From the NCBI GenBank assembly GCA_000432595.1, contig HF996865.1, positions 116-64,115 on the forward strand: a DNA stretch of 64,000 nucleotides, read 5' to 3'. The notes below the pieces were generated by a model, which did not search any database, was not told the DNA's origin, and worked only from the letters and a program-made list of their open reading frames with translations. This stretch comes from Clostridium sp. CAG:710 (GTDB taxonomy: Bacteria; Bacillota_I; Bacilli_A; RF39; UBA660). Shown here piece after piece: positions 20,088 to 26,157 of the stretch; the first letter of the stretch is position 1; the number at the start of each line of letters is the position of its first letter. The position numbers and the translations under genes are program-made.

Positions 20088-20855
20088 ATGTATTTTGCTT
20101 ATAAATATACAAAAATTTATTATGAAAAACATGGAAATAATAAAAAAGTAATATTAATATTCCCAGGATGGGGAGATAATAGAAAAACATTTTATAAAAT
20201 GATTGATGATTTAAAAGATGATTTTACCATTTATATATTTGATTATCCAGGTTTTGGAAATAGCCCTATCCCACATAAAGATTTAACAATATATGATTAT
20301 GCTGAAATATTTATGGAATTCATAAAAGAAAGCAAAATTAACAATCCAATAGTTATAGGACATTCTTTCGGTGGACGATTAATCATCACAATGAGTGGGT
20401 ATTATAAAGTTAAATTTAAAAAAGTAGTACTAATCTCATCCGCAGGAATAAAGCCAAAAAAGACATTATTTCAAAAAATAAAACAAAAGACATATAAAAT
20501 ACTTAAAAAAATAGGAACAATTTTACCATACAAAAAAAGAAAAAAATACAAAGATTTTCTTCTTAAACACTTCGCATCCAATGATTTTCTAGCACTACCA
20601 CAAACATTACATAAAACATTTATTAATATAGTAAATGAAGATTTAACTAAATATTTAATAAAGATAAAAACAGAAACACTTATAATTTGGGGAGAAAATG
20701 ATGAATCAACTCCAATTAAAGATGCTTATAAAATGAATAAATTAATTAAATCATCTGGACTTGTAGTAATAAAAGGAGCATCGCATTTTTGTTACTTAGA
20801 ATACCCAGGATATATAAAAGTCATATTAGACGAATATTTAAAAGGAGGAAATTAA
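20088..20855 (+). CDS. alpha/beta hydrolase
   Basis: Nucleophile elbow GHSFGG and a C-terminal ASH (probable catalytic His). The ATG at 20088 follows AGGTGA; the ORF track begins at a GTG at 20079. Confidence 0.8.
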   Translation: MYFAYKYTKIYYEKHGNNKKVILIFPGWGDNRKTFYKMIDDLKDDFTIYIFDYPGFGNSPIPHKDLTIYDYAEIFMEFIKESKINNPIVIGHSFGGRLIITMSGYYKVKFKKVVLISSAGIKPKKTLFQKIKQKTYKILKKIGTILPYKKRKKYKDFLLKHFASNDFLALPQTLHKTFINIVNEDLTKYLIKIKTETLIIWGENDESTPIKDAYKMNKLIKSSGLVVIKGASHFCYLEYPGYIKVILDEYLKGGN

Positions 20856-21127
20856 TTACAATTTCCTCCGAAAGATGCAAGAAGTGCTTTTATAGTACTC
20901 ATCGCATCTATATTGTTATTATCATTAACCAAATATGTATTAAATTCTTCTATTTTAGAAGAATCCTCTTCTCTACCAGATTTATCTAAATACTTAATAA
21001 TTTTTCCATCTTCAAAAACTAATGTAAATTTATCATTAGTAAGACTACATTCTAATTTGTTACTATTACAACCTGTAGTAAATATAAATGTAGTTATAAG
21101 TAAGATTAGAAAAATTATTTTTTTCAT
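20852..21127 (-). CDS. small lipoprotein
   Basis: Signal peptide with lipobox (FIFTTGC). 91 aa. Confidence 0.6.
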   Translation of the reverse strand: MKKIIFLILLITTFIFTTGCNSNKLECSLTNDKFTLVFEDGKIIKYLDKSGREEDSSKIEEFNTYLVNDNNNIDAMSTIKALLASFGGNCN

Positions 21128-21140
21128 ATAAACTCCTCTT

Positions 21141-22313
21141 TTATTTAGTTTTAGTTAACACTTTAATAGCATCATTAATGGTAGCTTCATTATTAGAAAC
21201 TTCCTTTTTTAAGTCTTCGTTTTCCTTAGCAAGAATATCGTTTGTAGAAACTAGCTCTTTATTTGCCGAAATTAATGCGTCTCTTGTTGTAGTTAACTCC
21301 TCAACCTCTTTTTTCAAATCTGTATAAGTAGGAACACTAGGGTCATTAATAGCAACAGTAGAATCATGTGATATAAAGTCATTATGTGCATTAATGATAC
21401 CAAGAAGAAATTCATTTACTCCAGCAAAACTTTGTAAATCAAACATTTGAGGAGTTATAATTTTACCGGTTGTAATACAATCTGTAATTATAGTAGCATA
21501 ATCTTTTTGTACATAACCTCCAGAATTCATAGAATCATAATATTTTTTCAAAAGCCATCTGTAGTCTTCTGAAACATCTAATGTAGCAAAACACTTATCA
21601 GCAATCTGTTGTGTTTCTCTAGCTTTTGCAAGTTTTTGATCTCCATGTAAGAAAAATTTACTTGTATTATTAGTACTAGTAGAAGTAAGCATAGTAGGAA
21701 TAGTAAGTTTCTGATTATTAAAAATCAAACCAAATCTTTCTTCTGCTTCTTCTATTGATTCAAAATATTGATTAGACATTGGAACATATATCTTTGACTT
21801 ATTGACCTTATCTATATTAGCAGCTAATCCTAGCATAAATATACCTTTTTCTTCATAAGCAGGTTTATTAACAAGTATATAATCAAATTTATATGTTTCT
21901 TTCCCAGTTGTATATGATCTTGAACTATCATATGGACAAGCAAATATCATATTAAAAATATTAATTTTTAAATTTTGTACAAAAGCAGAATTCTTCTTTT
22001 CAATATGTTCAGAAAATAATTGCTTCTCATCAATAATATTATCATTAATATATCTATAAAGCCTATATCTATCTTCACACATTTTATTTAATAACTCATA
22101 TGAGCTTTTTTCTCTATAAAGACCACTACTCATCAAATAATTTGTATTAACCCCTAATAAATGTGGAACAGATGAATTTGGAACATAAATTTTTATATTA
22201 TCTCCATTAGCAAAAGTCAAACTAAACTTATCTTTATATCTTGAGTTTCTGTTATAAGTTTCAACATTATTTGCAATAAGTTCCATTAAATATTCAAATT
22301 TAGTCATTTGCAT
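21141..22313 (-). CDS. hypothetical protein with C-terminal coiled coil
   Basis: 390-aa ORF with no signal peptide. The last ~60 aa form a heptad-like E/K/L-rich segment (LKKEVEELTTTRDALISANKELVSTNDILAKENEDLKKEV). Confidence 0.5.
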   Translation of the reverse strand: MQMTKFEYLMELIANNVETYNRNSRYKDKFSLTFANGDNIKIYVPNSSVPHLLGVNTNYLMSSGLYREKSSYELLNKMCEDRYRLYRYINDNIIDEKQLFSEHIEKKNSAFVQNLKINIFNMIFACPYDSSRSYTTGKETYKFDYILVNKPAYEEKGIFMLGLAANIDKVNKSKIYVPMSNQYFESIEEAEERFGLIFNNQKLTIPTMLTSTSTNNTSKFFLHGDQKLAKARETQQIADKCFATLDVSEDYRWLLKKYYDSMNSGGYVQKDYATIITDCITTGKIITPQMFDLQSFAGVNEFLLGIINAHNDFISHDSTVAINDPSVPTYTDLKKEVEELTTTRDALISANKELVSTNDILAKENEDLKKEVSNNEATINDAIKVLTKTK

Positions 22314-23970: not shown

Positions 23971-24084
23971 TAGAAAAAAAAGAACTATTTAATTTATACT
24001 AAATAATATGGTATATAAGTTTTTATGAAAAGAAGCAATATAATTTAAAAATTAAAAAACTAATTATCAGTTTTTCTAATAATT

Positions 24085-24107
24085 AAAACAGGACATTCGC
24101 CTGTTTT
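24085..24107 (-). terminator. terminator after the small peptide ORF
   Basis: Perfect 8-bp stem AAAACAGG / CCTGTTTT with a 7-nt loop, 13 nt downstream of the peptide stop codon. Confidence 0.6.
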
Positions 24108-24119
24108 AATTTTGTATCA

Positions 24120-24269
24120 TTAAGATTCATAACCATCAGTGGAACAGTCTCCATCTACACAGTCACAGTCAAGATCACTTATTTGATATGTAGAAGATAA
24201 TCCAATCGTTTCCGATGAATCAAGACCAGAATTGGTCATTTTTTTCTTTACTAATTCTAGCGCTGTCAT
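24120..24269 (-). CDS. unannotated 49-aa Asp/Cys-rich peptide, candidate RiPP precursor
   Basis: My translation: MTALELVKKKMTNSGLDSSETIGLSSTYQISDLDCDCVDGDCSTDGYES. Its ATG overlaps the TGA of the upstream radical SAM gene (ATGA), and a terminator follows. It is too short for the ORF track. Confidence 0.45.
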   Translation of the reverse strand: MTALELVKKKMTNSGLDSSETIGLSSTYQISDLDCDCVDGDCSTDGYES

Positions 24270-25813
24270 TTTCTCACTTTACTTGTATAAATATATTTAT
24301 CATTTATGACTTCAGACGGATCAGATGATAACCACCTTATAGCACATCCACCACCACATTGATACCATTTTTTACATCTAGAACATATTTCAGAAGGATA
24401 CTTTCCTATTATCTTTCTAAATTGCTTAATAACATCCGAATTCCAAAATTCAATTAATTTATCTAATTCAATATTAGTGTCATTTAAAGGATGTCCCATG
24501 AAATGATTGCATGGTAATATATTAAAATCAGGATCAAAAACCATACCAGTGCCTTTTGTTATATGACAGCAAGTTATTATTCTATTTTTAAGTATCATAT
24601 GAGTAAGCATATTCTTATCTAAAGAGCATAATGGTATTGACATTTCAAAGACAAAGTTAATTTCATCTTTATAAATTTTATCATATACGTACTTACATAG
24701 TATTGAAAGTTCTTCAATAGAAATAATCTGGTTTTCATCTTCCGCCGATGGCTTATAAAGTTGAAAAAGAATGTTATTTAGATGATGCTCTTTTACAACT
24801 TTCCAAAAATTATCAAATTTTTTTGTATCAGTATTGCATAAAACATAAGATAAGCTAGTTTTAATTCCACAATAACTAGCATTTTCATATCCTTTTATAG
24901 TTTCAAGAAATCCATTACTATTAGTATTTATAATATATTCTTCTTCATTTGAACCTTTTATTGATATATTAATGCTATATAAACCTGCTTCATACGCTCT
25001 TTTACAAAATTCTATATCTTTAAATTTTCTACCATTAGTTGCCATAGACACTTTGATATTATTTCTAGATATATATTTAATTATCTTTAAAATGCCAGGA
25101 TGTATACTTGGTTCTCCGCCTATTAAGATTATCTTTTTTATACCAATACCTTTCAAATAAGAAACATACTTTTTAACATTTTGATACGACATATTTCTGT
25201 TTATTTTTAAATACTTTTTTGCATAACACCATTTACAATTGTTATTACAAGTCATATTGGTTGTTAACCATACGGTATTGGGAATTACATTTTCATCATT
25301 AATAATATTAATCCAAAATCTTTGAATATATTTTTGGGTAACATCGTCATAAAATGTTTTTTCAAATTTACCGCCATTTTTTTCTATAACTTTTCTTGAC
25401 GCATAATTATCTTCAAAACAAGTAATTAATATATTTTTCATTTTATGCTTTTTATACTTTTTAATAGCTAATGATAGTGCTTTAGTTGCATAACCCTTTT
25501 TTCTTTCTTCAGGTTTTATATAATATGCAACATGACCCAGCCTAGAAAAATAATTATCATTTAATTTATGCCTTAAATCAATTGTTCCAACGACTTTATG
25601 ATTATCTATTATGAAATAAACAGTAGCGGGAACATCTCTGTTTGAAATTCCTATACCATTACGTCTATCCTTTAACCTATTTAACATATTTTGATAACTT
25701 TCACCATTTCTATATGCATTTCCCATCTCTAATTCATCTTTATTTTTTATGGCACTATTCACTAGTTCATAATACCCTTTCTCATATTTTTTACATGGTA
25801 AAACTAAATTCAT
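24266..25813 (-). CDS. fusion protein: N-terminal GNAT acetyltransferase plus radical SAM/SPASM-domain maturase
   Basis: aa ~1-170 are GNAT-like (GHVAYYIKPEERKKGYATKAL, NYASRKVIEKNGG). A CX3CX2C radical SAM motif (CNNNCKWC) follows. The C-terminus carries a SPASM motif CX2CX5CX3C (CSRCKKWYQCGGGC) plus extra cysteines (CCH, PCNH). Strong RBS GGAGG. Confidence 0.85.
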   Translation of the reverse strand: MNLVLPCKKYEKGYYELVNSAIKNKDELEMGNAYRNGESYQNMLNRLKDRRNGIGISNRDVPATVYFIIDNHKVVGTIDLRHKLNDNYFSRLGHVAYYIKPEERKKGYATKALSLAIKKYKKHKMKNILITCFEDNYASRKVIEKNGGKFEKTFYDDVTQKYIQRFWINIINDENVIPNTVWLTTNMTCNNNCKWCYAKKYLKINRNMSYQNVKKYVSYLKGIGIKKIILIGGEPSIHPGILKIIKYISRNNIKVSMATNGRKFKDIEFCKRAYEAGLYSINISIKGSNEEEYIINTNSNGFLETIKGYENASYCGIKTSLSYVLCNTDTKKFDNFWKVVKEHHLNNILFQLYKPSAEDENQIISIEELSILCKYVYDKIYKDEINFVFEMSIPLCSLDKNMLTHMILKNRIITCCHITKGTGMVFDPDFNILPCNHFMGHPLNDTNIELDKLIEFWNSDVIKQFRKIIGKYPSEICSRCKKWYQCGGGCAIRWLSSDPSEVINDKYIYTSKVRK

Positions 25814-25860
25814 GATACACCTCCAACATTTTTCAAAACTCTTTATAATACTTCTTATAT

Positions 25861-25910
25861 AACAAAAGGCAGTAGCCCAAAAGACTAATTGTCTCTAAAA
25901 GTTACTGCCC
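25861..25910 (-). terminator. terminator-like extended hairpin in the long intergenic region upstream of the rSAM gene
   Basis: On the minus strand: GGGCAGTAAC...(inner AGAC/GTCT pairing)...GCTACTGCC followed by TTTTGTT. Confidence 0.5.
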
Positions 25911-26157
25911 TAAATCTTTTTATAAAAAATCAATAAATATAGAAAAAGTTAATTACCAAAATTATTTTTATACCTATGCCTATATACAATTTCATTAAAC
26001 TTAAAATACATACTATTTTGATAAATGTCAGCATATTTTCATCAAAAATTCGGATGGGTAAGCACATTTAATCATTCATATTTTGGCCCATTTACTCATT
26101 TAGTTCCCTTATTTTACAACATTTTTTTATTTGGTCAATTTAATTTTTCATTTGAGC

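Follow-up and report, generated by a model that had tools for sequence, protein, structure and literature searches.

Closest described systems

Among the described systems that the locus studied here resembles, PapB and its precursor PapA yield freyrasin: an enzyme with a SPASM-type radical S-adenosylmethionine (SAM) part of about 330 amino acids (aa) and without a long N-terminal recognition domain is known to form thioethers between Cys sulfur and the C-beta of Asp in an Asp/Cys-rich core. Freyrasin carries six such Cys-Asp C-beta links, NxxcA is linked between Cys23 and Asn20, and QhpD joins Cys to Asp or Glu (PMC8326336); in our reading of this source, all known acceptors of non-alpha thioethers are Asp, Asn, or Thr. 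PapB tolerates Cys-Xn-Asp spacings with n of 0–6 (PMC9413430). In this study, we analyzed a 64-kb stretch of DNA (the window) from the human-gut bacterium Clostridium sp. CAG:710 (GC content of 26%), in which the listing of open reading frames (ORFs) and the raw sequence revealed two ORFs on the same strand, encoding a 515-aa enzyme and a 49-aa peptide. The enzyme joins a GNAT acetyltransferase domain to a radical SAM core and a SPASM region, and the pair formed with its Asp/Cys-rich peptide seems to represent a hitherto undescribed family of enzyme-modified peptides. We consider it probable that the two genes are a self-contained, mobile peptide-maturation cassette, the product of which is likely to carry Cys-to-Asp/Asn thioethers and to be acylated by the GNAT domain.

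The cassette shares with PapB/PapA the short radical SAM part and the core composition. Unlike the six CX3D repeats of PapA, the cores found here consist of [D/N]C units with an LDC[D/N]C opening, the leader belongs to a different family, and a GNAT is fused to or encoded adjacent to the enzyme. The PapB model NF047865 (cut-off 340) gave 63.6 bits for the enzyme of L013 (L-numbers denote fetched homologous loci and P-numbers homologous proteins) and was not among the best 25 families of the window enzyme, all of which scored at least 39.7 bits. In NxxcB/NxxcA of Streptococcus, the acceptor, an amide or acid side chain, lies N-terminal to the donor Cys (Asn20-Cys23), a spacing equal to that of D34-x-x-C37 in our peptide, and position 36 of the cores alternates between Asp and Asn; however, that system has one link, an unrelated peptide, and no GNAT, and its enzyme family was not matched here. 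SCIFF precursors, short and Cys-rich at their C-terminus, are likewise encoded beside a SPASM radical SAM enzyme (CteB/Tte1186-type maturases), often without an exporter, and have been proposed to be non-antimicrobial. Their maturases carry an N-terminal recognition domain that is missing here, the corresponding model TIGR03974 (cut-off 425) reached 35.5 bits with L084 and was not among the best 25 families of the window protein, and our peptide matched no NCBIfam peptide model (TIGR03973). SuiB, the streptide enzyme, also modifies a peptide and is both the best relative by sequence profile and one of the top fold matches, but shares about 16–18% identity, possesses a recognition domain, and forms a Lys-Trp C-C crosslink, for which the peptide here has no Trp/Lys motif.

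Elp3 is the only well-known single chain that combines a radical SAM domain with an acetyl-CoA-binding GNAT, yet its order is reversed (N-terminal radical SAM, Radical_SAM_C, C-terminal GNAT), it lacks SPASM, and its substrate is tRNA (cm5U); no Elp3-specific domain appeared among the nine Pfam families detected in the window enzyme at E values up to 1. For a StsB-type sactipeptide model, 59.5 bits were obtained against a cut-off of 625, and for mycofactocin (TIGR03962) 50.6 against 265, with no cofactor genes linked to the cassette; assignment to the PQQ family failed as well. In the microviridin and goadsporin pathways, GNAT N-acetyltransferases act as tailoring enzymes. Such GNATs from the pathways of peptides that are synthesized ribosomally and modified post-translationally (RiPPs) resemble our case in acylating a modified ribosomal peptide and differ in being separate proteins that work with other core enzymes. 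Lasso-peptide acyltransferases, e.g., are GNATs acylating an already modified ribosomal peptide, according to a preprint (bioRxiv 10.1101/2024.12.31.630886). A pathway from Asp to aminomalonate (PMC12186529) was also considered and set aside, its enzymes being unrelated to this cassette. The cassette resembles a system of the ranthipeptide/SCIFF type and, judged by curated models, falls outside the PapB, SCIFF, StsB, mycofactocin, and PQQ families. The initial annotation knew of no described family with this combination of domains and core; in agreement, no curated Pfam or NCBIfam model covers the peptide or the GNAT-SPASM fusion, and in full-text literature searches neither the peptide family nor a maturase of the GNAT-SPASM fusion type was found to be described, but Elp3 is a known fusion of radical SAM and GNAT.

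Conservation and mobility of the two genes

A search in 5.8 billion proteins, followed by retrieval of 45 genome loci and 80 metagenome loci, revealed about 30 clusters of full-length fusions with 50–99% identity to the window enzyme (CCZ59675.1, 24266..25813, minus strand, as are all cassette features below) and many stand-alone radical SAM/SPASM relatives of about 335 aa with 36–57% identity. All intact fusion loci (L001–L011, L046–L048) harbored a small ORF related to that of the window (CCZ59673.1, 24120..24269), located at the enzyme stop or at most 26 nt after it. In stand-alone relatives, the peptide ORF was found downstream (L013–L015, L017, L049, L068, L126–L128) or upstream (L016, L038, L052–L054) of the enzyme gene. 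In total, a related peptide beside a homologous enzyme was counted in about 30 loci, the flanks of which are unrelated. A hidden Markov model built from 14 of the locus peptides recognized the family with E values of 1e-10 to 1e-24 in L001–L011, L013–L017, L024, L038, L046–L049, L052–L054, L068, and L126–L128, and in the whole window its sole hit with an E value below 0.3 was one ORF (E = 2.9e-23). An adjacent small ORF on the same strand with at least three Cys in its last 22 residues accompanied 76 of 94 near-complete homologous radical SAM genes, compared with 35 of 302 controls, i.e., other genes of the same loci; with at least four Cys, the counts were 54/94 and 13/302. A looser test for Cys-rich neighbors (at least two Cys) had a background of 31% and was replaced by these stricter ones.

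Pairwise ratios of nonsynonymous to synonymous substitutions (dN/dS) were 0.09–0.36 for the small ORF, in the same range as those of the enzyme (0.11–0.35), and a strong, often perfect ribosome-binding site, AAAGGAGGTGA, precedes the peptide ATG in many loci. On these comparative grounds, we regard the small ORF as a real gene under purifying selection. A profile search revealed 79 public peptide clusters, all of them unnamed or 'hypothetical', and the exact window peptide is present on 786 contigs. The initial annotation had quoted the 49-aa sequence and the ATGA overlap of its start codon with the enzyme stop correctly. It had also called the peptide unannotated, and the ORF is indeed missing from the track on which that reading was based; since it is publicly recorded as CCZ59673.1, it was missing from that ORF track only. 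In the public records, the peptide is listed as 'unknown [Clostridium sp. CAG:710]' and the enzyme as 'predicted protein'.

In fusions that have lost the CxxxCxxC triad (L018, P0044, P0052), the GNAT motif is retained and an adjacent peptide gene is missing, which links the peptide to the function of the radical SAM domain. These fusions (L018:5974-7551 for the first) are about 40% identical GNAT-radical SAM proteins that have also lost some SPASM Cys. The enzyme gene of L024 contained many frameshifts and was not used. In L004, from an uncultured Bacilli metagenome-assembled genome (MAG), an in-frame TGA at the invariant Trp182 (L004:6547-6549) splits the fusion gene into a 'GNAT' and a '329-aa radical SAM' ORF and is either a nonsense mutation or read as Trp. 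P0031, seemingly a stand-alone enzyme of 66% identity, is very likely an artefact of such a TGA in an L004-like fusion, because its length of 329 aa and its identity are the same as in L004 and the contig size is similar.

The two genes also move as one unit. In BLASTn, L001 aligned to window positions 26048–23987 with 97.7% identity and L002/L048 to positions 26048–24081 with 90% identity, while the remainder of these 13.5-kb loci revealed no match to the window. The shared block (24080..26048, minus strand) is confined to the 5' region, the fusion gene, the peptide gene, and the hairpin behind it, which therefore travel together. The genes flanking it differ between loci and include tRNA synthetases, TatD, KsgA-like genes, and surface proteins. 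In the window, the neighbors form a teichoic-acid-type locus, with two TagF-like genes, PIG-L, DUF6056, GT2, and GtrA on one side and an ABC-2 permease and an ATPase on the other; the boundaries of the block leave out the glycopolymer genes, which argues against a functional tie to them. A two-gene module of enzyme and precursor, as proposed in the initial annotation, is thus borne out by co-conservation in every intact fusion locus in unrelated contexts, by purifying selection, and by joint movement as a 2-kb block, and with a leader/core precursor gene co-conserved with a modifying enzyme, the locus qualifies as a RiPP cassette in the generic sense.

Window context is shared by the sibling strains of L046 and L047, in which a 1.3-kb fragmented IS30-like insertion sequence (IS) element (HTH_38; L046:2423-3757), split into three ORFs, was identified. 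Its insertion point corresponds to window positions 26053–26056, exactly the 5' edge of the block. The window itself was considered as a carrier of this IS remnant, which was dropped, as the hit was a chance 'MGKH' match. When the surroundings of the 2-kb block were examined for terminal repeats, direct or inverted, only AT-rich chance matches were obtained. The cassette is patchily distributed and is decayed in L012, L018, L024, and L057.

Peptide family and core

In the alignment of the family, the peptide divides into a leader-like half (aa 1–32, 24174..24269, minus strand) with the pattern M-x-A-L-x-x-[LIV]...Y-x-G-T-x-I-x-[AS]-P...T/A-x-G-[IL] and a C-terminal core (aa 33–49, 24120..24173 including the stop codon), which reads LDCDCVDGDCSTDGYES in the window and is supported by alignment, core statistics, and dN/dS. 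The core opens with L-D-C-[D/N]-C-[VI]-D, of which LDC[D/N]C is near-invariant. In 68 distinct cores with a total of 267 Cys, neither D34 nor C35 varies, Asp or Asn occupies position 36 in 66, and C37 is found in 65; both C37 and C42 are retained in at least 90%. Asp, Cys, and Asn account for 24%, 22%, and 10% of the core residues, respectively, and 256 of the 267 Cys (96%) directly follow an Asp or Asn. Conserved Trp, Lys, or Arg residues are absent from these cores, and the peptide matched no specific Pfam or NCBIfam family, with no NCBIfam family at all at E values up to 1.

The residue numbers given in the initial annotation (C35, C37, C42, D39, D41, and D45) are correct, whereas the topology of three interleaved pairs derived from them received little backing. 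Of the 68 cores, 61 retain D39, as required for C35-x3-D39; at position 41, needed for C37-x3-D41, 44 have Asp, Asn, or Glu, and at position 45, needed for C42-x2-D45, 21 have Asp. An Asp or Glu at +4, as expected for the CX3D register of freyrasin, follows 121 of the 267 Cys (45%). Across these cores, [D/N]C units rather than CX3D are the dominant regularity. Three subtypes were distinguished: one with three Cys (...VD[GS]DCS[TI]E[TG]YE[YS]), which includes the window peptide, and one with four (...DCGD[SD][AS]DCSTPW), both found with fused enzymes, as well as one with five (...DCGxDxNCxNC[DN]). L001 encodes a near-identical peptide with a C42Y exchange (L001:7545-7694) beside a 97%-identical enzyme.

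Domains and structure of the fusion enzyme

The initial annotation had described the 515-aa ORF as a fusion of GNAT, radical SAM, and SPASM parts, and the ORF listing together with models above their curated cut-offs confirmed all three. The radical SAM core spans aa 178–360 (24734..25282, minus strand), with PF04055 matching aa 188–328 at 70.7 bits (cut-off 29.5). Its CNNNCKWC motif of the CxxxCxxC type (25226–25249) provides C189, C193, and C196, and among 57 sequences C193 and C196 show no variation and at least 90% retain C189. The SPASM region covers aa 396–497 (24323..24628) and was recognized at aa 418–497 by PF13186 (24.2 bits, cut-off 21.5) and TIGR04085 (40.1 bits, cut-off 27). It contains the motif CSRCKKWYQCGGGC, i.e., C477-x2-C480-x5-C486-x3-C490, and eight conserved Cys (C396, C415, C416, C435, C477, C480, C486, and C490), a number that suffices for two putative auxiliary 4Fe-4S clusters. 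The GNAT domain (aa 1–172, 25298..25813) is supported by Pfam matches, invariant columns, and the DSSP elements of the structure model; PF13302 (Acetyltransf_3) scored 44.8 bits (cut-off 25.4) and PF00583 (Acetyltransf_1) 38.5 bits (cut-off 20.7) at aa 59–148. With both motif and model present for each part, the enzyme belongs to the radical SAM, SPASM, and GNAT families. Not one equivalog-level NCBIfam model reached its cut-off with the enzyme, the best being an archaeal MoaA model with 80.8 bits (cut-off 325).

The AlphaFold2 model of the enzyme had a mean predicted local distance difference test (pLDDT) value of 93. By sequence profile, the closest solved structure is SuiB (PDB 5v1q, E = 1.9e-16 over aa 164–505), with PqqE as a weak match only. 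Fold neighbors of the model were BlsE, the top match, as well as SuiB, MoaA, anSME, and SkfB, all SPASM/twitch enzymes, of which SuiB, anSME, and SkfB modify peptides. This search returned generic neighbors and no pointer to the chemistry. The radical SAM part begins directly at the core, without a recognizable recognition domain.

Regarding the GNAT domain, the model displays a complete GNAT fold with canonical beta-alpha topology, and in 14 fusions the acetyl-CoA motif R104-x-x-G107-x-A109 is invariant or nearly so, as are many other N-terminal residues. Scans against NCBIfam and Pfam did not place the domain on its own in any specific GNAT subfamily. Among free-standing proteins, generic GNATs of 168 aa with 33% identity over aa 1–170 come closest to it; in a plasmid collection, such GNATs were the only hits, with no homologue of the whole fusion. 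The fusion is rare, with about five proteins of fusion length among 193 representatives at E values of at most 1e-30 in a library of 1.84 billion proteins. In L013 and L128, the gene order is radical SAM, peptide, and a separate gene for an Acetyltransf_3 protein of 179–183 aa, and in L126 an Acetyltransf_3 gene lies 3.4 kb upstream. The separate GNAT gene following the peptide gene in L013 and L128 lends Rosetta-stone-type support to a shared pathway, and together with the conservation of R104, G107, and A109 it supports the functional link between GNAT and module that had been assumed earlier.

Proposed maturation and alternative explanations

According to our proposal, the ATGA overlap would couple translation of the 49-aa product to that of the enzyme gene, and the conserved N-terminal half of this product would act as a leader that docks on the enzyme for recognition. 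The C-terminal LDC[D/N]C-V-D-x-D-C core would be the substrate of the radical SAM/SPASM domain: the 5'-deoxyadenosyl radical might take a side-chain hydrogen from Asp or Asn, and the thiolate of a Cys, which is probably bound to one of the auxiliary SPASM clusters, would close a thioether in a ranthipeptide-like manner, giving up to three Cys-to-Asp/Asn links for the three Cys. The GNAT domain would acylate the same peptide, as tailoring or self-protection, a role that the separate GNAT would take in stand-alone relatives. Based on core composition and ranthipeptide precedent, Cys-to-Asp/Asn thioethers appear to be the most likely crosslinks, combined with acetylation, and a core with Asp or Asn before 96% of its Cys is compatible with the ranthipeptide class (thioether to a non-alpha carbon). 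Bond type, ring topology, and acetylation target are put forward here as predictions, and the product may be a secreted signal or antimicrobial or an intracellular factor. Several observations weigh against this proposal. The enzyme misses the cut-offs of PapB, SCIFF, and every other equivalog, and CX3D is not the conserved register of the cores. Given the C42Y exchange in L001, the peptide may not need its third Cys. Relatedness between the fused GNAT and the separate GNATs of L013 and L128 is distant (27% identity, E = 3e-4), so that two independent recruitments are possible, and most members of the family function without any GNAT. Finally, no gene for leader removal, export, or immunity is conserved next to the fused form in the fusion loci, so that the product need not be a classical secreted RiPP. 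For the window, the lack of an adjacent dedicated protease or exporter had also been noted in the initial annotation.

This lack would be explained if the product were an intracellular peptide-derived factor, e.g., a cofactor for redox reactions or a thiol/carboxylate peptide that binds metal, instead of a secreted antimicrobial, which we rate as a real, if lesser, possibility. It would fit a fused form without conserved neighbors beyond the two genes, the occurrence of the exact peptide on 786 contigs, and the wide spread over genomes labelled as Mollicutes/Tenericutes-like Bacilli, Patescibacteria, Saccharibacteria, Woesearchaeota, and Pacearchaeota. SPASM enzymes also make the cofactors PQQ and mycofactocin, the models of which are weak matches here. 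However, the cassette is patchy and mobile (98% identity in unrelated contexts), lies beside an IS insertion site, and decays in four loci, all of which is typical of an accessory rather than a housekeeping function, and no dehydrogenase or other cofactor-using gene is linked to it. Doubtful, yet worth keeping in mind, is other radical chemistry on the same core, such as C-alpha sactionine bonds, rings between [D/N](i) and Cys(i+1), NxxC-like rings between D34 and C37, or links other than thioethers. The conserved unit is [D/N]C, with D34-C35-[D/N]36-C37 invariant or nearly so; NxxcB joins Cys to an Asn three residues upstream; SuiB, the closest solved relative by sequence, forms a Lys-Trp C-C bond; and many SPASM chemistries lie at the same distance from the family. 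Yet the core has no conserved Trp, Lys, or Arg, and distant members from candidate phyla radiation (CPR) bacteria and DPANN archaea keep nothing but the CxC pattern, which suggests that the reactive residue common to the family is Cys. The exact model of the initial annotation, in which one polypeptide forms three interleaved PapB-type thioethers (C35-x3-D39, C37-x3-D41, and C42-x2-D45) and N-acetylates the product, is unlikely: it could draw on the retention of D39, the Cys-X3-Asp links made by PapB, and the conserved GNAT motif, but Asp or Glu at +4 (45% of Cys) falls far behind Asp or Asn at −1 (96%), positions 41 and 45 vary among the cores, the subtypes with four and five Cys (…DCGDSADCSTPW and …DCGxDxNCxNCD) do not fit the register, and the enzyme falls short of the PapB family model.

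As for the GNAT domain, it is quite unlikely that, instead of being a tailoring acetyltransferase, it binds the leader in place of a RiPP recognition element or provides acetyl-CoA, in the manner of Elp3, as the co-substrate with which a C-C bond is formed on the peptide by radical chemistry. It does occupy the N-terminal position that recognition domains take in SuiB-type enzymes, and Elp3 is a precedent for a radical SAM domain acting jointly with an acetyl-CoA-binding GNAT (PMC13315578). Against this stand about 190 stand-alone clusters with similar leaders and no N-terminal domain, the separate GNAT proteins of L013 and L128, the absence of Elp3-specific domains in the Pfam scan, and an acetyl-CoA motif that is kept even in fusions without the triad. 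A more far-reaching idea, to which we likewise give little credence, is that the LDC[D/N]C peptides and the related CxCxC peptides are, rather than antibiotics, precursors of a small thiol/carboxylate-rich intracellular cofactor or metal carrier in host-dependent lineages and that the fused GNAT and radical SAM domains act jointly, maybe in an Elp3-like way; if true, such joint action would be a new kind of peptide modification by one polypeptide. The host-dependent lineages in question are gut Mollicutes-like Bacilli, CPR bacteria, and DPANN archaea. Extremely improbable, finally, is an enzyme acting on a non-peptide substrate of the teichoic-acid-type glycopolymer locus with the small ORF being incidental. 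TagF-like, GT2, GtrA, and ABC-2 exporter genes in the flanks of the window and BlsE, a radical SAM enzyme for sugar nucleotides, as the top fold match would speak for it; it is contradicted by the comparative data, as each of the other loci has different flanks, the glycopolymer genes lie outside the edges of the block, and the peptide is co-conserved and under selection.

Expression signals and neighboring genes

The TGA of the fusion gene overlaps the ATG of the peptide gene as ATGA, and the fusion gene itself is preceded by a GGAGG ribosome-binding site (25820..25824, minus strand) located 6 nt before its ATG. As indicated earlier, a hairpin follows the peptide gene: a stem-loop at 24085..24110 (minus strand), beginning 9–13 nt past the stop codon, folded with −14.1 kcal/mol and z = −4.6, and none of 200 shuffled sequences folded equally well. 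Its U-tract is weak, and a consensus terminator scan did not list it; the stem-loop is likely a transcription terminator, and the block common to L002 and L048 ends just beyond it. Upstream of the GGAGG, the 5' region of the cassette contains a long hairpin (25866..25908, minus strand) with UUUUGUU behind it, which was present in both the minimum-free-energy and the centroid structure. This terminator-like hairpin could be an attenuator or a leftover terminator. A scan against Rfam resulted in no match for the cassette, including this hairpin, and a promoter consensus scan was uninformative, with 22 sites found and 22.5 expected in DNA of this GC content.

Downstream of the ABC transporter in the window, ORFs of 390 aa (21141–22313, minus strand) and 91 aa (20852–21127, minus strand) revealed no Pfam match. 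L002, from Clostridium sp. CAG:594, harbors a MacB/FtsX-type ABC transporter (L002:8499-11601) about 1 kb downstream of the cassette and outside of the conserved block, which could be a local exporter or immunity system and is not conserved elsewhere.

Wider family

At 50% identity, the broader family comprises about 190 clusters, many of them in CPR bacteria and DPANN archaea. Distant relatives with 25–35% identity were found in MAGs labelled as Patescibacteria, Saccharibacteria, Woesearchaeota, Pacearchaeota, Diapherotrites, and others, and carry a small ORF that terminates in runs of the CxCxC type. A partner protein of 125–230 aa, often with an HExxH-like motif, was additionally detected in 52 loci. 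Triads of a radical SAM/SPASM gene, a CxCxC small ORF, and an HExxH-like gene occur in L019–L023, L026, L027, L031, and L055–L116 (e.g., L020:7025-7678 and L083:1934-2548). A Peptidase_MA_2-like protein is encoded nearby in the gut relatives L068 and L128. Such HExxH or Peptidase_MA-like partners are confined to stand-alone relatives and absent from the fused gut clade, and neither the CPR/DPANN peptides nor their HExxH-like partners matched a Pfam or NCBIfam family. In an Erysipelotrichaceae MAG, a 114-aa ORF consisting mostly of CNCDC/CDC repeats (L034:7206-7550), maybe a multi-core precursor, lies downstream of a distant radical SAM/SPASM gene (28% identity).

Altogether, the cassette belongs to a large unnamed family that is spread over abundant uncultured human-gut Bacilli, CPR bacteria, and DPANN archaea, and the Asp or Asn before nearly every Cys points to new thioether or other ring topologies. 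With a size of 2 kb, a self-contained organization, and high prevalence, it should be simple to express heterologously, and its role in the gut may be traceable in existing metatranscriptomes. If confirmed, the fusion of an acyltransferase with a radical SAM maturase would represent a compact one-enzyme route to crosslinked and capped peptides.

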